Assembly: GCA_013202845.1 (NCBI GenBank)
Contig: JABMPT010000008.1
Span: forward strand, 5,415-69,414
DNA from: Candidatus Woesearchaeota archaeon
GTDB lineage: Archaea > Nanobdellota > Nanobdellia > Woesearchaeales > GCA-2686295
Direction of reading: 5' to 3'
Length of the DNA stretch: 64,000 bases
Shown here: piece by piece, positions 2,096-43,539 of the stretch
Layout: each line of letters starts with the position of its first letter
Position numbering within the stretch: position 1 is the first letter of the stretch
Made by a program: the position numbers and the translations under genes
Notes under the pieces: generated by a model
Seen by the model: the letters and a program-made list of their open reading frames with translations, nothing else
Told to the model about the DNA's origin: nothing
The model's database searches: none

Positions 2096-3430
2096 TTATT
2101 TCTTCCTTTCTTTTCCATCAATATACGCATGCAGGTGATGATATCTCTTTGCGAGTTCTCCTTGATGTGCGATTACCGCTTTTTTGAACAATTTAGGTAT
2201 GTTTAGTTCTAGTCTTTCTTTGCTATAATCTGCTTTTACTAGTTGAGGTATAAATTGTAGTAATGCATCTCCAAATGATTTTGAAGCTTCTCTAGGTAGT
2301 TCTATGGGTAGTTTATCTTGTGCTAGTATTACTGGTCCAAATCCTTCTACTCCATCTTTTACTTTCTCTGTTAATGGTTCATATACATATACTGGGTTTT
2401 CGCTTGTCGTTGCTTTTGTCGTTAGTTCTATTGACCCTTCTATGTCGCATGATATGTCTGCTATTACTCTTAGTTTTGGATTTGGATTGAATTCGTAGAA
2501 TTGTTTCATATAACTTAGTGTTACTAGTCTTGGAAACTTCGGTTCCCAGTATATTCCGTTTACCATTATGCTTAGGTATGGTATAAACTTTTCAAATTTG
2601 CTTGTGAATCTTTCTGGATACTTTCTATATAGATAGCTGTCAAAGTTTCCTCCTTCTTTTTTCATAAGAATGTCTGATTTTTTAAATTCAACTATGTATA
2701 TTACTCCGTTTGAGAATTTTCCTTTTCTATAAAATGCTCCTAGTTCATCAGCAGATATGTTTATGGATGGTAGTAATCTGATGATTTCTTGTGATGCTTT
2801 TGAAACTCTTCCAAATCCTGTGAATCCAATAACAAGTGGTGTTAATTGGTTTGGCAGTCCTTCTTTTTTGATTTTTTTACCTATGTTCTTGATAACTTTT
2901 TTTATTTCAGCTAAACTATCATATGTACATGTTTGTTTTAATTCTTCAAATGGGTTTTCAACTCCATCCCATTTTAATCTTTTACCAAAAATCCATAAGG
3001 CATTAATCATTCCAACATAACCTGCATAATCACCAAAGAATACTACTCTTCTTCCATTATCTCGCTTTACTAGTTCATAATCAATTAAAGTAATTTTTTT
3101 CTTAAGAATTTGCTTGAGCATTCCCATATTGTATTTTTGACCTTTGATTGTATGAGAAAAAAACAAATAAGTTTTGCCTGCTATTAGCTCTTTAGCTGGA
3201 ACTTCTTTTACTCCTAGAATAACTTTACATGGTTTTAAGTCTCTTGAGATAGTTGCACCTGTCGCTCTATATTCTGCATCTTTAAAAATACGTAGTTTTG
3301 AAGGTTGAACTATTACTCCAATATCTTTATGTTCATGAATTAGTTTTTTAACATGCTCTGGTGTTAATACAACTCTTCTCTCATCAACATGGCCTGTTTC
3401 TTTTTTTATACCAATAAACACTTTCTCCAT
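2096..3430 (-). CDS. saccharopine dehydrogenase / LOR-SDH (alanine dehydrogenase/PNT-like) family protein
   Basis: 444 aa; architecture and length resemble lysine-ketoglutarate reductase / saccharopine dehydrogenase-like enzymes. ATG start at 3430. Confidence 0.5.
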   Translation of the reverse strand: MEKVFIGIKKETGHVDERRVVLTPEHVKKLIHEHKDIGVIVQPSKLRIFKDAEYRATGATISRDLKPCKVILGVKEVPAKELIAGKTYLFFSHTIKGQKYNMGMLKQILKKKITLIDYELVKRDNGRRVVFFGDYAGYVGMINALWIFGKRLKWDGVENPFEELKQTCTYDSLAEIKKVIKNIGKKIKKEGLPNQLTPLVIGFTGFGRVSKASQEIIRLLPSINISADELGAFYRKGKFSNGVIYIVEFKKSDILMKKEGGNFDSYLYRKYPERFTSKFEKFIPYLSIMVNGIYWEPKFPRLVTLSYMKQFYEFNPNPKLRVIADISCDIEGSIELTTKATTSENPVYVYEPLTEKVKDGVEGFGPVILAQDKLPIELPREASKSFGDALLQFIPQLVKADYSKERLELNIPKLFKKAVIAHQGELAKRYHHLHAYIDGKERKK

Positions 3431-3546
3431 AAAAGTAATAATTTCATGTCAGGCTTTAAACTTTCCTATTTCTCAAATAATCTTTTGAATCATAAAAGAA
3501 TATTTAAAGGTTTTACAAATATAGAGTAACATCAATATATTTGTTT

Positions 3547-3616
3547 TCGACATGAAGAAATGTTGAACAGAGTTGTTTAATAAGTGTTTGGGAGGGAAAA
3601 GCGGAAGATTTTGAAC
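3547..3616. repeat. composite intergenic repeat copy (blocks 1+2)
   Basis: Near-identical to 9590-9658. Confidence 0.7.
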
Positions 3617-4450
3617 TTATTCAACAGCTGCTGGAATTTTAGGAGCTCCATCAAACAATATTGTATTCTCAGGGATTTTTTCCTTCATTGTGCCAAACTT
3701 AATGTGACAATTAATACTATTCTTTTTACAGAATTCTATAACTTGTGTTGCACATTTTTCATAAAATTCCTCATTACCATTTCTAAACATACTGCTTTCC
3801 ACATTATAATTCAACTTTCCAAAAATGATGGTGTCTACAAAAGAAATTTTGTTTAATATTTCTAACAGGTTTTGCTTTTGTATACTCTCAGGAGGGTATG
3901 GCTCAACACTAACCCATGTTTTCAATCCTTGGTCATGAAGATATTTTAATGCTGCAATCCTTTTTTCATAAGGAGCGCTATAAGGTTCCCATTTTTTCTT
4001 ATAATTATTATCAAGAGAAACTAGAGTAATTCCATATTCATTATTAGCACCGAATTTTTCAATGTTCTTCAAAACTTTAGGATAAATTCCTTTTGTTAAA
4101 ACAGTGCATTTAATATTGTCCTTGTTAAGTCTTGCAATGATTCTCAGCGTTAAATGTTCAACTTCTTTATAACCACACATGAAAGGGTCTGTCATAAAGC
4201 ATAGATGAACAAATTTTATCTCATCTTTGTATTTTGGAATTTCCTTATCTAAGATTTCAATCGCATTTTCGACGATTTTAGGTTTTAGCCAGTCATGATA
4301 AGTTTTGACTCTCCCAAACCTTTTAGCCATATTGAAAGCATAGCAAGGAAAAGTACACCCATGAGAACAACCTTCAACATGATTGATACAGAAATCAGCG
4401 TATTCAACACCACTTTTATACAAAAGACTCTTCCTTTTAACACTCTCCAA
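3617..4450 (-). CDS. radical SAM / SplB (COG1533)-like protein with variant three-Cys motif C-x3-C-x3-C
   Basis: N-terminal GCSHGCTFPCYA resembles the GCSHxCxYCYA cluster of SplB-like radical SAM proteins but has one extra residue. Apparent TTG start. Immediately upstream of the TcmP-like gene. Confidence 0.5.
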   Translation of the reverse strand: MESVKRKSLLYKSGVEYADFCINHVEGCSHGCTFPCYAFNMAKRFGRVKTYHDWLKPKIVENAIEILDKEIPKYKDEIKFVHLCFMTDPFMCGYKEVEHLTLRIIARLNKDNIKCTVLTKGIYPKVLKNIEKFGANNEYGITLVSLDNNYKKKWEPYSAPYEKRIAALKYLHDQGLKTWVSVEPYPPESIQKQNLLEILNKISFVDTIIFGKLNYNVESSMFRNGNEEFYEKCATQVIEFCKKNSINCHIKFGTMKEKIPENTILFDGAPKIPAAVE

Positions 4451-4513: not shown

Positions 4514-5596
4514 TTATGAAAATATCACTGAATCTTCTTCATTTAAACCAGTTCTTGGCTTTCCGGTTTTAGTTTCTTTCTCAAATCGGTCTATTTTGGC
4601 TTTGCCTTCAATCTCAAGTTCTTTAATAACTTGACGAAAATGTTTTACAAGATAAACTGTTTCATCTAACTGATCACAAATGATTTCTTGAAAGGTTTTT
4701 GTTTTTTTCGAATATTCAGATAATAAATATTTTTTTAATTCTTTGAATTTTATATCATCATAGTCAAAAAAAGTCATTTGATTCTGATTCCTTCCTCTAT
4801 ATTCAACGCGTCCATGATTATATTTAGCGAAAGAACTCTTCATTATCTCACATCCTAGATAATAATTTGTTAAATGAAATAAATAATAATAAGTTCTTTT
4901 CATTAAAGGAAAACTTATTTTAAAAGGATATACAAATTCACAGAACTCTTTTAGTTTTAGACGATAAAGTTCTATTGTTTTATTTTCTTTATCTTGACCT
5001 GAGAACTTATTTAGAGATTTCCATTCATCAGAACCGAATAAGTCAGTCAAAACATTGCTAGCTTGTTCAACATTCAAATTTCTTATTATACCATCATACA
5101 TAAAATTTAAGAAAATCTCTGATTTCGGAATTTTCATCATTTTTTTTAAAGTTGTTAACTTGATTTTAAATCCGAAAGGATCAACAAAGAAAAAGGATGG
5201 GGCTAAATTTGTATGTTTGTCTAGAATTTTATTTATTGCTTTATCAAAATCTGAATTAATAAACTTAACTTCAACATCTAACTTTCTAAGTTCGAGAATT
5301 GTTTTAATATTATCAAGGTTTGATTGTTTGCTATCAATTATAATAAGACATGCGTCTCTTTTTAGACCTTCACTATTTTTTTTAATTATTTCCGCCGCAA
5401 GTATTGGAGAACCATAAAAAATTGATTCTTTATATTCATAGGCTCCAATTCCGCCAAACCCATCAAAATAATTTAAAGGACTAGATTTTCCAACAATTTT
5501 AATCCATTTATCAAAATAATCTGCAAATACCAAATGTTTTATTTTAGTGTGTTCTTGATATTTCCAAGTTTTAAAAGGGAGTTTTGTTTCTTTCAT
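4514..5596 (-). CDS. three-Cys-motif partner protein (TcmP-like)
   Basis: N-terminal HTKIKHLVFADYFDKW resembles the TcmP family signature. Gene pair with the 3-Cys protein, separated by a 63-nt spacer. First ATG at 5596 (the track's first M is GTG). Confidence 0.45.
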   Translation of the reverse strand: MKETKLPFKTWKYQEHTKIKHLVFADYFDKWIKIVGKSSPLNYFDGFGGIGAYEYKESIFYGSPILAAEIIKKNSEGLKRDACLIIIDSKQSNLDNIKTILELRKLDVEVKFINSDFDKAINKILDKHTNLAPSFFFVDPFGFKIKLTTLKKMMKIPKSEIFLNFMYDGIIRNLNVEQASNVLTDLFGSDEWKSLNKFSGQDKENKTIELYRLKLKEFCEFVYPFKISFPLMKRTYYYLFHLTNYYLGCEIMKSSFAKYNHGRVEYRGRNQNQMTFFDYDDIKFKELKKYLLSEYSKKTKTFQEIICDQLDETVYLVKHFRQVIKELEIEGKAKIDRFEKETKTGKPRTGLNEEDSVIFS

Positions 5597-12323: not shown

Positions 12324-13103
12324 ATGGCAAGAATAAATGTTAGTACCTTTCCTCGGATGTTAAAAAGCGTTCACAATGCTCAAAAGAAATGGAGACAGCA
12401 GAACTATGAAAACTCTATTACCAAGTTTAAAGATGAAATCGAGAAAACTCTTGAAATATTGAATTTTTATGGAAAATGGAAGAGTAAGTTTTCTGGTCAA
12501 AAGATAACAGATAAAATGATACCTGAAATATTCATGGATGGATTATCAAGTCTCCATTTTGCTTTATGGGGACAATATAAATATGCGAATATGGGTTTAC
12601 GTTCACAATTAGAGACTGCTTTGAGACTTATTTATTTTATGGACCACCCACGAGAATATGAATGGTGGTTAAGTGGTAATGAATGGTATAAGGGACAAAA
12701 AGGAGCTTATGTTTGGGGTGATGATTTTAATTACTTTAAACAGATAGATAAGATAAACAAGTTTGATAAAAATTTAGCTGGTGAAAAAAAGATATATTCC
12801 TCATCTAGTTCGGGCAAGTCTGGAAATTTACTAAAGGAAATTTACGGAAAACTCTCCAAGTCTATACATACTAGTGCACAACATTTTCAAACCTCTATAG
12901 GTAGATTTTCTCCTAAGTATTCCATGTCTAAAATGGAGACTTGGTTAAAGTCCTGTAAGGATTTACAATGTTACATAATTGTATCTTTGATATTATCTTT
13001 TCCTAAAGAATTTAAGAAAATGTCATCTATAGAACGGAGTACAATATTAACAAAAGGAGTTGTTGATTCGGTATATATCAAAAAAATAAATGAAGTAATC
13101 TAA
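12324..13103 (+). CDS. hypothetical protein (operon partner; weak R-x6-H HEPN-like motif RLIYFMDH)
   Basis: AGGTGA Shine-Dalgarno-like sequence upstream; co-directional tight spacing. Confidence 0.4.
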   Translation: MARINVSTFPRMLKSVHNAQKKWRQQNYENSITKFKDEIEKTLEILNFYGKWKSKFSGQKITDKMIPEIFMDGLSSLHFALWGQYKYANMGLRSQLETALRLIYFMDHPREYEWWLSGNEWYKGQKGAYVWGDDFNYFKQIDKINKFDKNLAGEKKIYSSSSSGKSGNLLKEIYGKLSKSIHTSAQHFQTSIGRFSPKYSMSKMETWLKSCKDLQCYIIVSLILSFPKEFKKMSSIERSTILTKGVVDSVYIKKINEVI

Positions 13104-13104
13104 A

Positions 13105-14172
13105 ATGACTAAACAAGAGAAAATTATCTCACCATCCACAAGATATCAAGGTAGTAAGAGAAGAATACTGCCTTGGCTGAAATCAACATTTGATAATCTA
13201 GAATTTGAAACTGTTTTAGATGGCTTTGGAGGTACTGCAAGCGTTAGTTATTTGTTCAAGCTAATGGGAAAAGAAGTAACCTTCAACGATATTCTTTTAT
13301 CAAATTATCAAACAGGACTTGCTTTAATTGAAAACAAAAAAACATTATTAAATGAAGAAGATATTGAATTCATTCTTAACATAAATAGAAAAAGTAATTA
13401 TTCAAACTTAATTTCGAAGAATTATAAAAATATATATTTTCTTGATGAAGAAAATAAGTGGTTAGACAAAGTAATTAACAATATTAAAGATTTATCTTTA
13501 TTTTACAAAGGAAATAAGTTGAAATTAAAAAAGGCTTTAGCTCATCATATTCTTTTTCAATCTTGTCTCTCAAAAAGGCCTTTTAATTTATTTCATAGAA
13601 AGAATCTAAACATGAGAACTAACACTAATATTAAAAGAAGTTTTGGTAATAAAGTTACTTGGGATACTCCTTTCAGAGAACATTTTATTAAATTTAATAA
13701 AGAGTACTCAGATAGAGTATTCGATAACAAAAGAAGAAACAAAGCTATGAATAAAGACATCTTCAAGATAAATAAGACTTATGATTTAGTTTATCTTGAT
13801 CCTCCTTATATGCGAACTCATACAACCAAACCTCAGAAATACCAAGAAATGTATCACTTTTTAGAAGGAATTATGAACTATGAAACTTGGCTAAAGAATA
13901 TTGATTATATTCGAATACACAAACCGTTCATCATAGAAAATAATAACTGGAACGAAAAAGTGTTAGAGAATTTTGATGAACTATTTAAGAAATTTTCTGA
14001 CTCTGTATTGGTTGTTTCTTATGGAAATAAAGGTTCGCCAAGTATATCTTCTATTGTGCGTTTGATGAAAAAATACAAAAACAAAGTTAGAACAATTTCA
14101 AGACCTTATTCATACAGATTAAATAGAAATAATGGAAAAGGATATCGAGAAGTGATTATTATTGGAGAATAA
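13105..14172 (+). CDS. D12-class (Dam-like) N6-adenine DNA methyltransferase
   Basis: N-terminal Y-QGSKRR..P, motif I DGFGGTASV, motif IV YLDPPYM. Start 1 nt after the upstream stop. Confidence 0.65.
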   Translation: MTKQEKIISPSTRYQGSKRRILPWLKSTFDNLEFETVLDGFGGTASVSYLFKLMGKEVTFNDILLSNYQTGLALIENKKTLLNEEDIEFILNINRKSNYSNLISKNYKNIYFLDEENKWLDKVINNIKDLSLFYKGNKLKLKKALAHHILFQSCLSKRPFNLFHRKNLNMRTNTNIKRSFGNKVTWDTPFREHFIKFNKEYSDRVFDNKRRNKAMNKDIFKINKTYDLVYLDPPYMRTHTTKPQKYQEMYHFLEGIMNYETWLKNIDYIRIHKPFIIENNNWNEKVLENFDELFKKFSDSVLVVSYGNKGSPSISSIVRLMKKYKNKVRTISRPYSYRLNRNNGKGYREVIIIGE

Positions 14173-14173
14173 G

Positions 14174-14842
14174 CTAAGAATTATAGTTGTTTAAGTAGTC
14201 CATAGTTCTAATATAGGACTTATCAATTAGTCTATTAAATTTTGTTCTTAGTCTTTTAGTTTCTGTTGTTAAATACCCTTCATGTGTAGGTGAAGGGTAC
14301 TTCTTTAGTTTTATCTTAGTTTGTTTATCTTTCCTTCCAGCATTATGAACGTATTGGTTTCTAATAATATAAATATGTTCCATTATTTTCTTTTCATCTT
14401 GTGTTAAAAAAGGAATTCCAAACAATTCGAAGAAATCGTAAACATCAAATCTGTTTTTAATATTTAACTTATTTAAGATAATTTCATAAGTATTGCGTTT
14501 TCTTGAAGATACTAATTCGCCAATAATATTCTTATGTTTCGTTTCTTTGCTTGTGAAAAAAGTTGAAAATTTATTAAGAAGTTCTTGTATTAAATCTTTA
14601 TAATAGACCTCAAAATTTGTACTTAAAGATATGAGTGCATGTTCTGAACATGATACTTCGATTTTGATTAATTCTTTATCTTGTGATTTTTTTACTGCCT
14701 CGTGATGTTTTGGATGTATATCATAAGCTTTTTGTTGATATATCCAATTATATGTTTTAAGTTTACTCATCGCAGTTATTAACATCTCAGTTCTTTTTGC
14801 ATTAGTATGAAAATTTGATATTGAATTAATTTTTCTTATCAT
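14174..14842 (-). CDS. HEPN-like protein (RN-x3-H), convergent on the MTase
   Basis: IIRNQYVHNAG matches RNxxxH. Its stop abuts the MTase stop. Confidence 0.4.
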   Translation of the reverse strand: MIRKINSISNFHTNAKRTEMLITAMSKLKTYNWIYQQKAYDIHPKHHEAVKKSQDKELIKIEVSCSEHALISLSTNFEVYYKDLIQELLNKFSTFFTSKETKHKNIIGELVSSRKRNTYEIILNKLNIKNRFDVYDFFELFGIPFLTQDEKKIMEHIYIIRNQYVHNAGRKDKQTKIKLKKYPSPTHEGYLTTETKRLRTKFNRLIDKSYIRTMDYLNNYNS

Positions 14843-16281: not shown

Positions 16282-17112
16282 ATGAATGTTAAAATTCCCA
16301 GATTTGTCAAATGGGCAGGCGGAAAAACTCAATTAATCAACCAATTCAAACCTTTCTTCCCTAAACAAATAGAAAGATACTTTGAACCATTTGTAGGTGG
16401 AGGAGCTGTTTTGTTTTACATAATTCAGAAATTTTCTCCAAAAAAAGTATTTATTTCAGATACTAATGAAGAGCTTATTAATGCTTATGAAATAATAAAA
16501 AATGATGTTGAATCTTTAATTAAAGAACTTAAGAAGCATAAAAACAATTATGACAAAAATCCTAAAGAGTATTACTATAAAACAAGAGCTATAAATCCTG
16601 AAGATTTAACCGAAGTAGAAAAAGCAGCCAGATTCATATTTCTTAACAGAACATGCTTCAATGGATTATATAGAGTGAATTCTAAGAATAGATTCAATGT
16701 ACCTATTGGAAGATACACAAATCCTGCAATAGTAAGAGAAGATATTCTTAGAGAAATTAATAAATTGCTTCAAAAAGTCGAAATAGAAGTTATGTCTTTT
16801 GAGAAAATAGTTAAGATTGTCAAGAAAGGAGACTTTGTTTATTTCGATCCTCCTTATTGGCCAATAAAAAGCGATAATTTCACAAGTTACACAAAACTAG
16901 ATTTCAAGAAAGAAGATCAAGAAAAACTTGCAGAAGTTTTTCAAGAATTAGATAAAAAAGGAGTTAAAGTAATGTTAAGTAATAGCGATACAGAATTAAT
17001 TCAAAATTTATATTCTAAATACAAACCAAAGATTGTCAAAGCAACTAGAATGATTAATTCTAAAGCAGAAGGAAGAGGAGCAATTAATGAAGTTGTTGTT
17101 GTGAACTATTAG
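16282..17112 (+). CDS. Dam/DpnM-like (alpha-class) GATC-type N6-adenine DNA methyltransferase
   Basis: KWAGGK, FVGGGAV, NGLYRVN, FDPPYWP. Confidence 0.85.
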   Translation: MNVKIPRFVKWAGGKTQLINQFKPFFPKQIERYFEPFVGGGAVLFYIIQKFSPKKVFISDTNEELINAYEIIKNDVESLIKELKKHKNNYDKNPKEYYYKTRAINPEDLTEVEKAARFIFLNRTCFNGLYRVNSKNRFNVPIGRYTNPAIVREDILREINKLLQKVEIEVMSFEKIVKIVKKGDFVYFDPPYWPIKSDNFTSYTKLDFKKEDQEKLAEVFQELDKKGVKVMLSNSDTELIQNLYSKYKPKIVKATRMINSKAEGRGAINEVVVVNY

Positions 17113-17635
17113 CTCGTTTGGATATGTTCTTTACAAGTTTTACACCCTCAACTTCTTGCATTAATATCTTAATAGGAACCAATCGACCTACTGTGGTGTG
17201 TTTATAATTACCTTCAAGGTCTTTTGTAGTTGTTTTACTTTCTTTGAATCTATCAATGTTTTTCAAGAACCATTCTCTAACTTTATTTAATGGGAGAATG
17301 TACATATCATCCCATTCAGTGAAATAATAGAAAATAATTCTGGCTTTACTTTTAACAAAACATCCTTTTGTTCCCAAACTCTCATTGCTTAATGTTTCAA
17401 ACCAAAAATTCCCAGTAGTATACTTGTCCGTTTTTACTTCGATAGACACAAAGAATTTTAATTCGCCTTTTTTATAACTCCAAATTAAATCAATATCGTT
17501 TTTTTGATATTCAGGATCATTCTCAACATTCTTCAATTCAATTGTTTTTTTAAGATCACCTAAATATCTACAAACAACTTCTATTCCTTTCTTCGAGAAA
17601 TCATTTTTTTCATCAAAGGTATAAGACTTAACCAT
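17084..17635 (-). CDS. PD-(D/E)XK nuclease-fold protein, putative restriction endonuclease subunit
   Basis: D-x(12)-E-V-K core (NDIDLIW...FFVSIEVK). True ATG at 17635; the track's first M is TTG. The ATG lies inside AATGGTTAA, which overlaps the upstream ORF's stop. Confidence 0.45.
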   Translation of the reverse strand: MVKSYTFDEKNDFSKKGIEVVCRYLGDLKKTIELKNVENDPEYQKNDIDLIWSYKKGELKFFVSIEVKTDKYTTGNFWFETLSNESLGTKGCFVKSKARIIFYYFTEWDDMYILPLNKVREWFLKNIDRFKESKTTTKDLEGNYKHTTVGRLVPIKILMQEVEGVKLVKNISKRANSSQQQLH

Positions 17636-18152
17636 TTTGTGTGGCTTTACCAACAATAACAAAAATATCCTCTTCGTTTAGAATGGAGTCCATTAAATTC
17701 TTAAAAACAAAAGCTCTTGCTAAACCAGTTTTTTCCATTCTCATCATCAGCTCTATTAAATGACCAATAAACTCAATAGTATACTCCCCATACTTATTTA
17801 GCTCATCAAATTCTCTTAATTTCTTAGGTGTTGTCTGTTTTAACTGACACTTCTGCTGTTCTTCCTTTGTTCTAAAGGGTTCTACCTTTTCCCACATATC
17901 TCTTAAGTATCTAACAAAATCAAGACTTAATTCTCTGTTGTGCTCCTTTTTAATAAGAATGTCAATAACCCAATGAATGTGCTTTGGAGTTCTAACCCTC
18001 TTATTTGGTTCTTGATATTTAATTATAATATCTAAATCAGGATTTTCTCCTCTACTACCCTGAAATACACCCATAATAGTACCATCCAATAGATTGAATT
18101 CTTTAAAGGAGTGAGCTTTTGTTCCTTTTCCATCTCTCAAACTGTATTCCAT
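17628..18152 (-). CDS. hypothetical protein translationally coupled to the nuclease (possible specificity/partner subunit)
   Basis: 174 aa; its stop overlaps the nuclease ATG by 8 nt; sits between two DNA MTase genes. Confidence 0.35.
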   Translation of the reverse strand: MEYSLRDGKGTKAHSFKEFNLLDGTIMGVFQGSRGENPDLDIIIKYQEPNKRVRTPKHIHWVIDILIKKEHNRELSLDFVRYLRDMWEKVEPFRTKEEQQKCQLKQTTPKKLREFDELNKYGEYTIEFIGHLIELMMRMEKTGLARAFVFKNLMDSILNEEDIFVIVGKATQNG

Positions 18153-18279
18153 AACATAAATTATACTGAAGATGTTTTTATAAATCTTTTCGATTCTTCC
18201 GAAAACATCCTGTCAATAACAACGAAAACACTGGACATCGAGGAGAAAACTATATAAAAGAAAAAGTTCCAAGCATAGT

Positions 18280-19050
18280 ATGACTATTTTTGAAGATAAC
18301 AATATAACATTACTGAAAGGGGATTGTTTGAAACTCTTACCAACCATAAGAAAAGGCTCAGTAACAACTATATTTGCAGATCCTCCTTACAATCTTTCTA
18401 ATGGAGGAATTACGTGTAAAGCCGGAAAAATGGTTTCTGTGAACAAAGGAGACTGGGATAAATCCAAAGGATTTACTAAAGATTATGAATTTACATATAA
18501 CTGGTTGAAATTATGTAAAGATGTCTTAAAACCTAATGGAACTATATGGATATCAGGAACTCCTCATAATATTTATCAAGTAGGACATGCTTTACAATCT
18601 CTTGGTTTTAATATTCTAAATGAAATTTCTTGGTTTAAACCAAATGCTCCACCAAATCTTTCTTGTCGTTATTTTGCACATTCACACGAGACAATTTTAT
18701 GGGCTAAAAAAGATAAAAAAGCAAAACACACATTTAATTATAAAGAAATGAAAAAATGGGATGATAAAATTAGTCCTTCAAATAAACAAATGAGAAGTGT
18801 TTGGCACATTCCTTTAACAAGCCCGAAAGAAAAGAAGAATGGTAAGCATCCAACACAAAAACCAATTGAGTTATTAAAAAGAATAATCACTGCAAGTTCT
18901 AATAAAAAAGATTTAATTTTGGATCCTTTTAATGGTTCAGGCACTACTGGAATTGTAGCAAAAATGTTAGGAAGAAGATATATAGGAATTGATAAAGAAC
19001 AAAAGTTTCTAAATTTAACAAAAAAAAGATTTAATGAATTAAAGAAATAA
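18280..19050 (+). CDS. beta-class N4/N6 DNA methyltransferase (DpnA/ParB-MTase-like, PF01555-type)
   Basis: ADPPYN early, FNGSGTTG near the C-terminus (circularly permuted beta-class order). Confidence 0.8.
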   Translation: MTIFEDNNITLLKGDCLKLLPTIRKGSVTTIFADPPYNLSNGGITCKAGKMVSVNKGDWDKSKGFTKDYEFTYNWLKLCKDVLKPNGTIWISGTPHNIYQVGHALQSLGFNILNEISWFKPNAPPNLSCRYFAHSHETILWAKKDKKAKHTFNYKEMKKWDDKISPSNKQMRSVWHIPLTSPKEKKNGKHPTQKPIELLKRIITASSNKKDLILDPFNGSGTTGIVAKMLGRRYIGIDKEQKFLNLTKKRFNELKK

Positions 19051-20950: not shown

Positions 20951-22147
20951 TTAAAAACTTTCTTGCGCCTCTCTTTTGCATTGTCTGTACAACTCGTTAG
21001 ATGGGTCTAGTTCTATTGCTCTGTCATAGTTCGGTATTGCTTCTTCTAGTTTTCCTTGGTCGACTAGTGTTTCTGCTTTATTAATCCATGCGTTTGAAAA
21101 TGTTGGGTCTAGTTCTATTGCTCTGTTATAGCATTTTATTGCTTCTTCTAGTTTTCCTTGGTTGACTAGTGTTATTCCTTTGTTGCTCCATGCTGTTGCG
21201 TCTTTTGGTTTTATTTCTATTGCTTTATCAAAACATTCTATTGCTTCTTCTAGTTTTCCTTGGTCGTATAGTGCTGCTCCTTTGTTGTTCCAAGCAAGTC
21301 TATGTTTTGGCTTTAGGCTTATTGCTTTGTCATAGTTTTTTATTGCTTCTTCTAGTTTTCCTTGTTTTCTTAGTGTTAATCCTTTGTTGTTCCATGCCAA
21401 CGCGAGTTTTGGTTTTATGTTGATTGCTTTGTCATAGCATTCAATTGCTTCTTCAAATCTTTTTAAGTTTTTCAGCGCTACTCCTTTGTTGTTCCATGCT
21501 GTTGCGTATTTTGGTTTTATGTTGATAGCTTTATCATAGCATTCTATTGCTTCTTCTGGCTTTCTTTGGTCGGCTAGTGTTATTCCTTTGTTGTTCCATG
21601 CTCCTGTGTATTTTGGGTTTAGTTTTATTATTTTATCATAGCATTGTATTGCTTCTTCTAGTTTTCTTTGTTTTCTGAGTGCGTTTCCTTTGTTGTTCCA
21701 TGCAAATGCGTCTTTTGGGTTTAATTTTATTGCTCTGTCATAGCATTGTATTGCTTCTTCAAGTCTTTCCAAGTGATATAGTGTTACTCCTTTGTTGTGC
21801 CATGCGTCTGCGTATTTTGGGTTTATTCTTATTGCTTTGTCAAAACTTTCTATTGCGTCTTCTAGTTTTCCTTGGTTGTATAGTGCTACTCCTTTGTTGT
21901 ACCATGCGCCTCTGTCTTCTGGGTCTATCTTTATTGCTTTATCATAGCATCGTATTGCTTCTTCATATCTTTCCAAATTATGTAAGTTTGCTCCTTTGAT
22001 AATCCATGCGTCTGCGTCTCCCTGCCCCATTGCTAGCAAGAACCAATTTTTAAGTCTTTTTGTTATCTTTTCTTCTTTTATTTTAATTTCTATCTCTGCC
22101 AACTCTTCAAATTCTCTTTCCAGGTTTAAGTCTTCATCCAAAGTCAT
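20951..22147 (-). CDS. TPR-repeat protein (paralog 1)
   Basis: About ten 34-aa TPR units (AW.NKG..L......EA...Y..A....P). N-terminus shared with the other two copies. Confidence 0.8.
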   Translation of the reverse strand: MTLDEDLNLEREFEELAEIEIKIKEEKITKRLKNWFLLAMGQGDADAWIIKGANLHNLERYEEAIRCYDKAIKIDPEDRGAWYNKGVALYNQGKLEDAIESFDKAIRINPKYADAWHNKGVTLYHLERLEEAIQCYDRAIKLNPKDAFAWNNKGNALRKQRKLEEAIQCYDKIIKLNPKYTGAWNNKGITLADQRKPEEAIECYDKAINIKPKYATAWNNKGVALKNLKRFEEAIECYDKAINIKPKLALAWNNKGLTLRKQGKLEEAIKNYDKAISLKPKHRLAWNNKGAALYDQGKLEEAIECFDKAIEIKPKDATAWSNKGITLVNQGKLEEAIKCYNRAIELDPTFSNAWINKAETLVDQGKLEEAIPNYDRAIELDPSNELYRQCKREAQESF

Positions 22148-27700: not shown

Positions 27701-28795
27701 TTATTGTTCAGGAAGTATTCCGTTTTCAAGATAGGTTTTGATTTCGAGAAGGCTTAGCCCTGCAAGCCCCAAGGTTTTAAGGCTGCGTTTTTTCTGGGCG
27801 AAATAATCAATATCTAATATTGCGGAACCAATAGCGACCATAGCCTGTGCTGTAGGTGTGGGAACATTAAGAAGCTCGCCCATTTCACAGTATAATACTA
27901 GCCCAAAGCCTATGTCTTCATGAAAATAGCGGTGATCTAATGTATTGGGACTGGTGAAACCAGCAAATCCCTTACCATTTTTATAACATTCTAGATAGTC
28001 CGTGCTTTCTGCATACCCTTGAGCCACGCAGGTCTCTGGATCAGGTCGAGCTGAATATCCAAAAGCCCTGAGAATGGCCATGCGTTCTTCATCAAGTTTT
28101 TTGATTAGCTTGGCTACCGAAGATGATAACCCTTGATTATAGAAAAGCATATCTTCATTTTCAAACCGTGCTCCATTTAAAAGGGCTATGGGTGGATGAA
28201 TCACGGGGTTAGCATTATTTAATCCTGCTTCAAGCACGCTTTTAGCACGCACAAGTCCCGGAAACAGTTTTTCAAGTGACGGTCCTACTTCATCGATTCT
28301 ATTGGCGGGAAAAGTACTGTATAAAACTCGTCCAACCTTCACTGCAATATTAATCTTGTTCCCTTTTGCTCGACATCCATAAGTAAGGGTATGAAATTCT
28401 CCAAGAAGCGGCAGTTCCTTCAAGCCCCTTTTACGAAATATATTGGCAAGATATAGTGATCCGCCGGTTGATCCTGGATTGAGTATAACACATTGCTCTG
28501 GTTTTACAAGAGAGGTAAGTTCCTGCCCTACTCTTTCGTGCGTGAGAGCCTGAGTACAGATCATAATCATGTCTGCACCGTTAACTGCTTTGGCCAAATC
28601 AGATGTAATAAACTCTAATTGGGCTGTTCCCTGTACTGCTCCTTGCAAAGTAATTTGAGGTTTTTCTTTGAGCATGTCAATATTAGCTGCATACTCAGGA
28701 AACTCGAAGAGCCGTACTTTTTTCCCCTGTAGAGCCAGGTCTCCAGCTGCAGCTTTACCACCATTACCAGCCCCAATTATTGCTATAGTTTCCAT
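27701..28795 (-). CDS. NAD(P)-dependent opine dehydrogenase-like oxidoreductase
   Basis: Rossmann motif IAIIGAGNGG; length and helical C-terminus as in octopine/nopaline dehydrogenase. Start moved to ATG at 28795. GC-richer than the flanks. Confidence 0.5.
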   Translation of the reverse strand: METIAIIGAGNGGKAAAGDLALQGKKVRLFEFPEYAANIDMLKEKPQITLQGAVQGTAQLEFITSDLAKAVNGADMIMICTQALTHERVGQELTSLVKPEQCVILNPGSTGGSLYLANIFRKRGLKELPLLGEFHTLTYGCRAKGNKINIAVKVGRVLYSTFPANRIDEVGPSLEKLFPGLVRAKSVLEAGLNNANPVIHPPIALLNGARFENEDMLFYNQGLSSSVAKLIKKLDEERMAILRAFGYSARPDPETCVAQGYAESTDYLECYKNGKGFAGFTSPNTLDHRYFHEDIGFGLVLYCEMGELLNVPTPTAQAMVAIGSAILDIDYFAQKKRSLKTLGLAGLSLLEIKTYLENGILPEQ

Positions 28796-28894
28796 TGTAA
28801 GAAGGAAAACAAATATGACGATATATAAAATCATTGTTTTAATTTATTTTCATCAGAGAATTAATCTTCTGGAATGTAGCCATGACCTGTTGAT

Positions 28895-30181
28895 TCAAAT
28901 ATTGCATCTTGCCTGGCTCAACACAGGAGCTATTGTTCGTTCAACAGCTTGATCAATTAGTGCTTCTGTCATGGCACCTGGAGGCGGTGCAATTCTGGTA
29001 TATGCTCTTCTTGTTTTAGGATTATAATGCCCGTGTTTCATGAATATTCTGGGATCTCTTCCTTGACCTAACAACATTTCCAGGCATGAATGCTTTGCTG
29101 TATCTACTCCCTCCAATTCCACTCTGATTAATAAACCTCTATGATCAACTGTGACTCCTTCTATTCCTTCTAATTGTCTAACAAAGTAATCTCCGAGTTC
29201 CTTAGCTCTTTTGGGAATTCCTTCTCTGTCTATATATTCAAGTGAAGCGCACGCAGCTGCACAAGCTAATGAATAACCACCAAAAGTGCTTCCATCACTG
29301 CCGGGTGTGTAGATTCTCATAAACTGCTCAGTTCCAACAACTGCTGAAACAGGAATAATGCCTCCTCCTAAGGCCTTACCCAAAGTTACAAAATCAGGTC
29401 TAGCTTCATCTCCATACTCTTGCCAAGCCATCATATAACCACATCTACCTAATCCTGTTTGAATCTCGTCTGCACCAAAGAATATATCCCTTTCTGTTGC
29501 AAGTCGTCTTATTGCCATATAATGGTCTTTTGTAGAGAATAATGGTCCTCCTTCTCCCTTGTGTGTCTCAACAAATATTCCAACTGTATTTTCGTTGATT
29601 GCAGCTTCAATAGCTTCAACATCATCATCAGCAACAACCACGCCCGGTGCTCTTGGCACTCTTCTGTTTGACTGGTCAGGATCAAACAGTGCATTTGATG
29701 CAAATATCCAGGTTCTTCCATGAAAATAATCCTTAGTAAGGATTACTTCAGGATTTTCAATGCCTCTTTCATGGCCATGCATTAATAACCCACTAATAGC
29801 AGAATCTGTTGCAGAACCCCCATCACTTTTTGAGAGAACTCTGTCATAACCAGTCAACTGCGCAACCAATTCGACAAAATCGGCATATCTTACAGAGAAA
29901 AGAGCTCTGCTTACCAAGTCACAACCATGCTCCATTTCTCTCTTTACAGCTTCTATAACCCCTTCATGCCCATGTGATAAGACTGCTGAGTAAGCAGATA
30001 GAAAGTCTAGTGCTTTGTTTCCATCTGGATCAAATAACCATGGTCCTTGTGCTCTATATACAACAAAAGGATAAGGTTCATAATTTCTTGCACTGTGACC
30101 CTCTATTCTTCTAATAAGCTCTGCACTTTGCGGTCCTAACGGACCATAGTTTCTATCTCTAAAAGGTATAAATTTTGCCAT
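28895..30181 (-). CDS. class III pyridoxal-phosphate aminotransferase (ornithine/acetylornithine AT-like)
   Basis: ADEIQTGLGRCG, TLGKALGGG. Start moved to ATG at 30181. GC-richer. Confidence 0.75.
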   Translation of the reverse strand: MAKFIPFRDRNYGPLGPQSAELIRRIEGHSARNYEPYPFVVYRAQGPWLFDPDGNKALDFLSAYSAVLSHGHEGVIEAVKREMEHGCDLVSRALFSVRYADFVELVAQLTGYDRVLSKSDGGSATDSAISGLLMHGHERGIENPEVILTKDYFHGRTWIFASNALFDPDQSNRRVPRAPGVVVADDDVEAIEAAINENTVGIFVETHKGEGGPLFSTKDHYMAIRRLATERDIFFGADEIQTGLGRCGYMMAWQEYGDEARPDFVTLGKALGGGIIPVSAVVGTEQFMRIYTPGSDGSTFGGYSLACAAACASLEYIDREGIPKRAKELGDYFVRQLEGIEGVTVDHRGLLIRVELEGVDTAKHSCLEMLLGQGRDPRIFMKHGHYNPKTRRAYTRIAPPPGAMTEALIDQAVERTIAPVLSQARCNI

Positions 30182-40971: not shown

Positions 40972-41679
40972 TTAATTTTTAATTTTATAGTATACTCTCC
41001 TGTTATTCTTTCCCTTGTTATCAGCCTTCAAGAACTCCAGTTCACCAATCTCAGAAGTGTTCTTGACATGGGTTCCACCGTCGGCCTGAGTATCGAAATC
41101 GCCAATCTCTACAATTCTCAAAGTATCAATGGCGGGAGGCAATGCGCCAGCCAGTTTTACAACAGAAGGGATACTTAAAGCTTCTTCACGAGGAAGAAAA
41201 TACCATTTCACCTCTAAATTCTTCTTTATTACGTCGTTAGCCTGCTTGATATACTCAACCATTTTCTCACGATCATAATCCTCCAAGCTAAAATCAATCC
41301 TCGTCTTGTCCAGACCTAATTGATTACCAGATATCAAAGCACCAGTTTCATTATGAATCAAAGTGCTCACAATATGCGCAGAAGTATGCATCCTCATCAA
41401 TTTATAGCGTCTCTCCCAGTCAATAACGCAGTGAACCTTGTCACCATCCTTCAAACCTTCTTTATCCACTTCATGGCTTATATCATCACCAAACTTGCCA
41501 ACAAAAACCACCTTGAACTCGTCATTATCTGTCTTCATAACACCTTCATCCCAAGGCTGACCCCCGGAATTAGGATAGAAACCAGTATTATCCAAAACAA
41601 TGAACTTGCCATTAGCCTTTTTTACAGAAGCATCAAACTCTTTCAAATAAGAATCATCCAAATACAAAGCATCTGCCAT
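40972..41679 (-). CDS. alaX: alanyl-tRNA editing protein AlaX (AlaRS editing-domain homolog)
   Basis: HTSAHIV...H and GGTHV zinc/editing motifs. Confidence 0.8.
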   Translation of the reverse strand: MADALYLDDSYLKEFDASVKKANGKFIVLDNTGFYPNSGGQPWDEGVMKTDNDEFKVVFVGKFGDDISHEVDKEGLKDGDKVHCVIDWERRYKLMRMHTSAHIVSTLIHNETGALISGNQLGLDKTRIDFSLEDYDREKMVEYIKQANDVIKKNLEVKWYFLPREEALSIPSVVKLAGALPPAIDTLRIVEIGDFDTQADGGTHVKNTSEIGELEFLKADNKGKNNRRVYYKIKN

Positions 41680-41734
41680 ATGATCACCCCAAAGAAAGTG
41701 TAAACATAGTATTATATAAGGATTCCCATTTCAT

Positions 41735-42655
41735 TCACTCGAATAAACCAGTGCTTAAATACCTTTCTCCAGTGTCGGGCAGTATCACTACAAGATTCTT
41801 ATCCTCCCCCTTGTTCTTAGCTACTTGCAGAGCTGCGTATACTGCTGCTCCTGAAGATATTCCTACTAGAATACCTTCTTCTTTAGCTATTCTCTGGGCA
41901 GTGTTTTTTGCATCCTCATCACTCACCTGGATGATTTTATCGTAAATGCTTGTATCAAGAATGCTAGGAACGAATCCTGCTCCTATACCCTGAATTTTAT
42001 GCTTGCCAGCTTTGCCTGCAGAAAGCATTGGAGATCCTTCAGGCTCAACAGCGTAGATCTTTATCCCAGGAAAAGCTTCTCGAAGAACTTTTCCAGCTCC
42101 AGTAATTGTACCACCAGTACCTATGCCTGCAACAAAATAATCTAGTCCAATATATTTGAACTCTTCAACTATTTCAGGACCAGTTGTTTTTTCATGAATC
42201 TCTGGGTTTGCAAGATTCTGAAATTGCTGAGGCATGAAATAATTATTTTCCTTTGCTAGTTTCTCAGCTCTTTTTATCGCGCCTGTCATTCCAGGACCTT
42301 CTTCTGGCTTCACCAAAACAAGTTCAGCGCCATAAGCTTTTAACATATCCCTTCTTTCTTTAGACATTGTTTCGGGCATAGTTAATATAAGCTTGTATCC
42401 TCTCTGTGCAGAAACGAATGCGAGTGCGATTCCTGTGTTACCAGATGTTGGTTCTATAATCGCATCTCCAGGTTTTAGAAGACCTTTTTTTTCCGCATCC
42501 AGTATCATGTTTAATCCTATGCGGTCCTTCACGCTACCGGCAGGGTTATAGTGTTCTAGCTTTCCCCATGTAGTTGCAGAGTCCTTGTCTGCCAACTTGT
42601 TCAACTTAATTATTGGTGTGTTTCCTACTAGTTCTGTTATGTTGTTTACTTTCAT
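41735..42655 (-). CDS. cysK: cysteine synthase / O-acetylserine sulfhydrylase
   Basis: SVKDRIG PLP-lysine motif, [11 protein letters not shown]. Confidence 0.85.
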
Positions 42656-43539
42656 TTTTTTCCTCCGTTTTGTTTTTTTTCTAATTGAGGGTGTTCTGAT
42701 ATGAATACTGTGGTGTTGTCAGGGATATCTTCTTGGACCCAAGAGTTCGCACCGATGCTTACATGGTTACCTATATTAACAGGTCCTAGAATTTTAGCAC
42801 CTACGCCTATCACTACATGATTTCCGATAGTTGGATGTCTTTTGTAATTCTTCCTCAGCTCTTGCTCTCCTTCTTTCTCGAAATGTAATGCTCCTAGAGT
42901 CACACTTTGATAAATTCTCACCCAATCTCCTATTTTGGTTGTTTCGCCTATCACTACTCCTGTACCATGGTCTATGAAGAAGTATTCTCCAATCTTCGCT
43001 CCAGGATGAATATCAATTCCAGTCATTGAGTGGATTTGCTCAGCAAGCTCTCTAGGATAAGATGGAACATTAAGCTCATATAGTTTATGCGCAATTCTGT
43101 GGATCATTATAGCACTAAAAGAAGGATATGACCTTATTATCTCAGTATAATTCCTGGCTGCAGGGTCTCCTTTATAGGAAGCCTCTATGTTTTTCTTCAA
43201 ACTCTCTCTGATAGAAGGTATTTGTCTTATAATCTTATCAACGGTTAATTTATTTTGTTCATTTTTCTCAAGATAAGAGCTTGTTCCCTCAAACAATACC
43301 TGCCCAAGCTCATTTATTTTTGCTTCAAGACCTTTCTTATTATCCTGCTTTGTTATTGAGCCATTATTCCAATAATTTGGAAACATCACTTCCCTTAATA
43401 ATCCCAGTTCTTCAAATACCTGATCCCTCTCCAGAAAATTTATATTTGTCCTTGTTATAAAAGGATTTTTGTCTTGTTTATATGATTCAAATAACCTATT
43501 GATTGCGTCTCCTTTGTATTCATACATTTTAACCCTCAT
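42652..43539 (-). CDS. cysE: serine O-acetyltransferase
   Basis: Left-handed beta-helix hexapeptide repeats (IHPGAKIG...[11 protein letters not shown]). 4-nt overlap with cysK. Confidence 0.8.

Follow-up and report, generated by a model that had tools for sequence, protein, structure and literature searches.

A putative GATC-type restriction-modification cassette of a Candidatus Woesearchaeota archaeon combining a candidate restriction protein of an uncharacterised family with a second, predicted PD-(D/E)XK nuclease

The DpnII system of Streptococcus pneumoniae combines an alpha-class and a beta-class DNA methyltransferase with a restriction activity aimed at unmethylated GATC (PMC3573125). 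In a survey of archaeal restriction-modification systems, which covered six DPANN genomes, Type II nuclease genes were mostly missed by similarity searches (PMC10609329). In this study, we analysed a stretch of 64,000 nucleotides from a Candidatus Woesearchaeota archaeon (assembly GCA_013202845.1, contig JABMPT010000008.1, forward strand, positions 5,415 to 69,414; the whole stretch is called the window), in which four genes at positions 16282-19050 probably form a GATC-type restriction-modification cassette of this DPANN genome. Two further arrangements served for comparison: SsuDAT1I of Streptococcus suis has two methyltransferases and two isoschizomeric GATC nucleases, both of them DpnII homologues, while the heteromeric Type II enzymes BslI, BbvCI and Bpu10I have subunits that, as far as is known, are always found together and are both needed. 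With moderate confidence, we read the cassette as a Type II system in which a small protein of an uncharacterised family, encoded by open reading frame (ORF) A, replaces the DpnII nuclease, and in which the adjacent ORF B provides an optional add-on nuclease. Our confidence is higher for the GATC assignment of the cassette and for A and B not being parts of a split enzyme.

The cassette is framed by two methyltransferase genes on the plus strand. M1 (16282-17112) encodes an alpha-class enzyme of 276 aa with the motifs FVKWAGGK and FDPPY, and M2 (18280-19050) encodes a beta-class enzyme of 256 aa with ADPPY near its N-terminus and FNGSGTTG near its C-terminus. Between them, two genes are located on the minus strand, namely ORF A (17628-18152; 174 aa), a member of a widespread uncharacterised family, and ORF B (17084-17635; 183 aa), which encodes the predicted PD-(D/E)XK nuclease. 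A preliminary description of this DNA had listed these four ORFs together with their motifs, and all of them were found at these positions. In its pairing of an alpha-class Dam-like with a beta-class methyltransferase, the cassette resembles the DpnII/MboI/LlaDCHI class, and sister cassettes carry true nucleases of the DpnII family PF04556. Several features set it apart from DpnII itself (dpnM-dpnA-dpnB). The genes of DpnII form one co-directional operon, whereas here the methyltransferases flank candidate nuclease genes on the opposite strand, and the cassette has an extra PD-(D/E)XK gene. Also, neither A nor B matched PF04556, whereas the same search assigned a 310-aa protein of a sister locus (L089; loci other than the window are designated by L and a number) to this family with an E-value of 2.8e-92. 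By analogy, the cassette would work like the DpnII/MboI/LlaDCHI class while lacking the nuclease family that defines it.

M1 was assigned to the D12/Dam class by profile searches (PF02086, 1.4e-71; TIGR00571, 305.6 bits at a cut-off of 114.85). Its best sequence match in the PDB was DpnM (2dpm; 1.3e-69, 238 bits), E. coli Dam reached 128 bits, and sister cassettes hold copies of M1 at 59-64% identity. M1 is regarded as a DpnM/Dam-like N6-adenine DNA methyltransferase with a presumed specificity for GATC. M2 belongs to the beta-class N6_N4 family (PF01555, 1.2e-64); it shows the fold and the motif order of this class, DPPY preceding FxGxG, and occupies the position of DpnA. Family membership alone leaves the specificity of M2 unfixed, because the closest solved relative and best PDB match, CcrM (6pbd; 3.2e-61), recognises GANTC. 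The genomic context of M2 homologues points to GATC. A methyltransferase of L089 shares 74% identity with M2 and is located divergently beside the 310-aa DpnII-family protein; in L168, an M2 homologue (57%) precedes a 302-aa DpnII-family gene; and in Clostridium saccharoperbutylacetonicum (L190), an M2 homologue (56%) heads an operon of beta methyltransferase, D12 methyltransferase and DpnII nuclease. From this context, M2 is probably a beta-class N6-adenine methyltransferase directed at GATC.

The frequency of the putative target site agrees with this assignment. Within the window, GATC was the most depleted 4-mer palindrome, with 111 observed versus 197 expected sites (observed-to-expected ratio (O/E) 0.56, z -7.5), and it was also the most depleted one in 635 kb of sequence pooled around A homologues from 80 species (O/E 0.58, z -22). 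Broken down by the methyltransferase partner of A, the GATC ratio was 0.53 at loci with a Dam-like enzyme only and 0.61 at those with a beta-class enzyme only, compared to 0.84-0.87 for GANTC. A GANTC specificity of M2 is disfavoured by these ratios and by the linkage of M2 homologues to PF04556 nucleases. Besides the GANTC specificity of CcrM, the moderate depletion of GATC at unrelated loci (O/E 0.82) has to be set against a GATC specificity. Since PF04556-linked M2 homologues and GATC depletion point in the same direction, the DpnII-like, GATC-directed reading of the methyltransferase pair, which the preliminary description had proposed along with the Dam/DpnM-like class of M1 and the beta class of M2, appears well supported, if indirectly.

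Both small ORFs are conserved genes; at E ≤ 1e-3, database searches returned 70 clusters for B and 503 for A. On the minus strand, A ends with ACA CAA AAT GGT TAA and B opens with ATG GTT AAG, and the stop codon of A lies within the start of B in the 8-nt overlap ATGGTTAA (17628-17635, minus strand). If B is called from a TTG codon, it extends over 17084-17662 (192 aa) and overlaps A by 35 nt. The ATG at 17635, yielding the 183-aa product, was taken as the start of B because 42 homologues begin with M-[VIM]-K-S-Y-T-F. Thus, the earlier view of the 35-nt overlap as an artifact of the TTG start holds, as does the proposed coupling: judged from this junction, A and B are translationally coupled through the 8-nt overlap. 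At its other end, B overlaps M1 convergently by 29 nt (17084-17112, both strands), and a similar overlap was found in L088, L091, L094, L099 and L110. A single gene split by a frameshift could be excluded, as the homologues are all separate proteins of about 175 aa and no A-B fusion occurred among the best 150 of 323 A-family representatives, which were obtained as clusters at 50% identity by a profile search of 1.84 billion representatives.

The core of B reads D49-x16-E66-V-K68, and the residues D49, E66, K68, D70, N76 and E80 are invariant across 43 homologues. A PD-(D/E)XK core had been noted before as D-x12-EVK; the core itself is real, but the spacing in B is x16, while shorter relatives show a spacing of about x12. 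The AlphaFold2 model of B (mean predicted local distance difference test (pLDDT) 89.9) matched SSV1 D212, I-Ssp6803I, PrfA/RecU, the SPARDA nuclease domain, R.SwaI and HinP1I in Foldseek with probabilities of 0.97-1.0, but with TM-scores of only 0.36-0.45. No match of B reached the threshold in Pfam, NCBIfam, PADLOC or among PDB sequences; sub-threshold matches to PDDEXK_5 and NOV_C were obtained for 18-19 of the 43 family members. B resembles SSV1 D212 (PDDEXK_5), I-Ssp6803I and RecU/PrfA in fold (Foldseek 0.99-1.0), in the D...E-x-K motif and in these sub-threshold Pfam matches. It differs from them in its low identity of 8-15%, in not reaching any Pfam family and in a conserved C-terminal hairpin of its own (TTT...TTVGRLVPI). 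On the basis of the predicted fold, with its alpha-beta-beta-beta-alpha-beta core, and the invariant motif, B is a PD-(D/E)XK nuclease. A or B as a divergent DpnII, MutH or Sau3AI was rejected, with neither a sequence nor a fold match.

The genomic context of B was analysed in 23 metagenomic loci with a homologue of at least 59% identity, and all 23 loci are GATC-type cassettes. Immediately ahead of B, nine of them have A, another nine have a gene for a 205-aa A-like protein designated X, and two have one for a DpnII-family nuclease (310 or 375 aa), while in three loci this position is cut by the contig end. The ATGGTTAA overlap is identical behind A (window, L037, L094, L096), behind X (L090, L092) and behind the 375-aa DpnII-like gene (L110). 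In L020, A, a DpnII homologue and B follow each other in a row. Because B trails whichever restriction gene is present, we regard it as an optional second nuclease and not as half of an enzyme. The latter had been suggested in the preliminary description, in which the restriction function was thought to be split between A and B as two subunits of a heteromeric GATC endonuclease replacing DpnII. Such an enzyme would explain why A and B are adjacent with an 8-nt overlap, why the A-B pair recurs with both methyltransferases in L091, L094 and L096, and why B carries a PD-(D/E)XK site, and two adjacent small co-translated genes flanked by two methyltransferases are also a likeness to BslI, BbvCI and Bpu10I. 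However, when neighbours within 1.5 kb of A were recorded in 80 species-level loci, B was located beside A in only two. Since this co-occurrence fails, the cassette does not appear to be a heteromer of the BslI/BbvCI type, and its presumably palindromic target needs no heterodimer. Furthermore, B trails unrelated genes, intact DpnII homologues included, its distant relatives stand alone, and the homologues of A and B are the separate, unfused proteins described above, belonging to unrelated families with different distributions. A and B are therefore probably not one split enzyme, and we assign only a very small probability to the two-subunit explanation.

A different view of B arises from its more distant relatives (32-50% identity), which are lone genes in bacteria of 33-68% GC; around these stand-alone relatives, no conserved neighbours were found. 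Further relatives occur on 22 viral contigs, within replication modules. Together with the homing endonuclease I-Ssp6803I and the RecU/PrfA resolvases among its fold neighbours, and with the identical junction behind three different upstream genes, this distribution would suit a mobile or phage-derived nuclease, similar to a homing endonuclease or a resolvase, that was inserted behind restriction genes and has no role in restriction. Against such an origin speaks that all 23 close homologues reside in cassettes with GATC-type methyltransferases, in the same operon as the upstream gene and often overlapping it, a linkage stronger than expected from random insertion; we consider this explanation of B quite unlikely. 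Taken together, the distribution of B characterises it as an independent, portable nuclease module which in one clade is tied to GATC cassettes. Within these cassettes, B could be a second GATC cutter, a degrader or processor of restriction products, or a selfish passenger.

The 503 clusters of the A family all comprise proteins of about 175 aa that are named hypothetical, and the databases contain an identical copy of A itself, likewise named hypothetical, from a Candidatus Woesearchaeota archaeon. A scan with one genome per species revealed A relatives in 365 GTDB species at 40-80% identity. Most of them are DPANN archaea (Woese-, Pace-, Nano-, Micr- and Aenigmarchaeota), but Methanosarcinales/Methanoperedens, Bathyarchaeota, Patescibacteria, Chloroflexi and Clostridia are also represented; no relative was found on the viral contigs searched. 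The family had no match in Pfam, NCBIfam, PADLOC or among PDB sequences. In the AlphaFold2 model of A (pLDDT 91.1, predicted TM-score 0.87), five N-terminal strands are followed by seven helices. D41, R54, P56, H60, D64, K68, E140 and K/R141 are kept in the divergent members inspected, and this mix of acidic residues, histidine and lysine would be expected of a catalytic centre more readily than of a site that only binds DNA. In our literature search, neither the A family nor the B family was found to be described; a prior listing in REBASE is possible. Forms of A with about 280 and 336 aa also exist, which bear unannotated N-terminal extensions.

In the 80 species-level loci, a Dam-like and/or a beta-class methyltransferase was present beside A in 64 cases: 29 loci had only the Dam-like enzyme, 30 only the beta-class enzyme (one of these also with B), and five had both. 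A DpnII-family nuclease was found within three of the 80 A loci, and no other conserved neighbours of A were detected. Association extends to fusion, since one 462-aa protein (P0194) consists of a D12 methyltransferase followed by A. A conserved winged helix-turn-helix controller gene upstream of A was found neither in the 80 loci nor in the window, and subtypes of A tracking the type of methyltransferase were discarded, as no segregation was seen among the A sequences. By guilt by association, the two-gene units of A and a methyltransferase identify A as the restriction partner, and in the window A stands at the place of dpnB. We consider it most likely that A acts on its own as a GATC restriction enzyme and represents an undescribed family, although we hold this with less assurance than the general picture of the cassette.

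Several findings weigh against a nuclease activity of A. Foldseek returned no PDB match for the A model (best E-value 0.53) and none in BFVD (best E-value 0.12), and neither structural nor profile similarity of A to the PD-(D/E)XK, HNH, GIY-YIG, PLD or half-pipe nuclease folds was detected. Of the two small ORFs, only B shows a recognisable nuclease fold and motif. A-like genes adjoin assorted PD-(D/E)XK genes, namely B, a PDDEXK_7 gene (L190) and a DUF2779 gene (L194), and in L020 and L190 an A-like gene occurs together with a complete DpnII nuclease, so that A as a nuclease would imply two to three nucleases per specificity. Finally, a 388-aa protein (P0313) combines A with a C-terminal TIR domain (PF13676, 1.6e-17), which fits a sensor role. 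All of this could be accommodated if A and the A-like proteins were not catalytic but recognised unmethylated GATC or had a regulatory function, and a neighbouring nuclease, here B, did the cutting. Because of the A-like genes beside PD-(D/E)XK genes and the fusion of A to a TIR effector, we keep this model alive; it would also be in line with the translational coupling of A and B and with low-probability matches of the A fold to methyl-CpG-binding domains (MBD). On the other hand, roughly three in four A loci have no conserved third gene besides A and a methyltransferase and would therefore lack an effector, B also trails complete DpnII-family nucleases, which need no sensor, and relatives of B occur without A in bacteria and phages. 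Furthermore, acidic residues and histidine are conserved in the A family, as is typical of catalytic sites. A sensor-effector pair is in our view unlikely, though less so than the insertion of B as a passenger. As specific candidates, a HEPN domain (R-x4-6-H), a SeqA-like reader and an MBD-like reader were rejected for A, as no significant fold match was obtained (MBD probability 0.12-0.33).

Further A-like proteins occur in related loci. X was found in 717 clusters, all named hypothetical, and is also paired in two-gene units with a methyltransferase of one class or the other (L193, L194). A third family, Y, comprises A-like proteins of 150-180 aa with the motif P-[SK]-H-K-D-I-F-x-D-L. Y is arranged in tandem with A in L026 (5001-6087) and L064 (5001-6094); in L168 (3540-4501), L129 and L135, it is flanked by a DpnII-family nuclease on one side and a B homologue on the other. 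A relationship between X and Y was revealed by tblastn (26-28% identity, about 1e-6), and the P-x-H...D-L motif and a later glutamate are common to A, X and Y. An hhalign comparison of A with X/Y gave a probability of 1%, and of 21% (E = 0.001) with a deeper alignment, which makes a homology of A to X and Y no more than suggestive. In C. saccharoperbutylacetonicum (L190/L191, 1-5442), a co-directional series starts with the beta methyltransferase, the D12 methyltransferase and the DpnII-family nuclease and continues with an unknown 230-aa protein, X (203 aa), a 67-aa ORF and the PDDEXK_7 gene. We tentatively propose, at somewhat less than even probability, that A and probably X and Y constitute a new, widespread superfamily of GATC restriction proteins with a catalytic fold not seen before. 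It would be dominant in DPANN archaea and also be present in the Candidate Phyla Radiation (CPR), methanogens and Clostridia, and A, X, Y, DpnII and B would be stacked or swapped under a common GATC methylation. Its active site would likely be a His/Asp/Glu centre around P-x-H...D-L.

Two side observations concern these sister loci. A winged-helix protein of 84-86 aa (HTH_20, 4.7e-06), similar to a controller (C) protein, is encoded in overlap with the beginning of either X or the DpnII-like gene; its gene is located at 734-988 in L088, 1933-2187 in L090, 1897-2151 in L099 and 1432-1692 in L110, and at least four loci (L088, L090, L099, L110) have an 84-aa protein of this type ahead of X. In L020, the run of A, DpnII homologue and B is directly followed by a gene (2189-4450) for a 753-aa protein with a DndB domain associated with DNA sulfur modification (PF14072, 1.9e-09).

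Returning to the Type II reading of the window cassette, in which A replaces DpnII, the following sequence of events can be envisaged. M1 and M2 would methylate the adenine of GATC in the host genome, giving it the protection that DpnM and DpnA provide in the pneumococcal DpnII system. A would be expressed from the divergent 127-bp spacer between A and M2 (18153-18279), which is AT-rich and contains a TATA-like box for A at about 18177-18184 and another for M2 at about 18251-18259, each at a distance of 25-28 nt to the respective ATG; by archaeal promoter geometry, these boxes might represent promoters. As the host is an archaeon, a scan for bacterial promoters and terminators was uninformative. 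A would then attack unmethylated GATC in incoming DNA, taking the place of the DpnII nuclease with a protein that is not homologous to it and whose predicted fold is without a solved relative. B would be produced by translational coupling in amounts approximately equal to those of A and would add a second nuclease activity under the same methylation protection. Like SsuDAT1I, the cassette joins two methyltransferases with two candidate nuclease genes that share a single methylation specificity; unlike in SsuDAT1I, neither candidate is related to DpnII or to the other. In this reading, the cassette follows an ordinary Type II logic, with a restriction component from a family without annotation, profile or structural relative, and with an undescribed accessory nuclease.

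To our knowledge, only a handful of nuclease folds are represented among restriction enzymes. If the proposed function is true, A is a candidate for a new nuclease fold and possibly for a new GATC reagent, and as a restriction enzyme its family would fill the defence repertoire of DPANN archaea and CPR bacteria with their small, mostly unannotated genomes. The swapping and stacking of unrelated nucleases beside the same methyltransferases suggests that cells diversify restriction while their methylation pattern stays the same; this could be of use against phage inhibitors directed at single enzymes. The cultured C. saccharoperbutylacetonicum with its related cassette represents an experimentally tractable relative.

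Further features were found in the surroundings of the cassette. A second methyltransferase module is located about 1.4 kb upstream (window positions 12324-14842). It comprises a plus-strand gene for a 259-aa protein with a weak DUF5677 match (12324-13103), a plus-strand gene for a 355-aa D12-class methyltransferase that starts 2 nt later (13105-14172), and a convergent minus-strand gene for a 222-aa protein with weak HEPN matches (RiboL-PSP, Apea; 14174-14842). In an unrelated bacterial locus (L005), a B homologue is located beside DUF5677 and HEPN_RiboL-PSP genes. The region of the window looks like a defence island. On the other side, the minus strand at 20951-22147 encodes a 398-aa protein with about ten tetratricopeptide-like repeats (AWxNKGxAL...GKLEEAIxCYDKAIxLxPK), opposite to which several spurious ORFs were called. 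Finally, the segments 28001-30000 and 41001-43000 of the window have a G+C content of 0.40-0.42, compared to a background of about 0.33.

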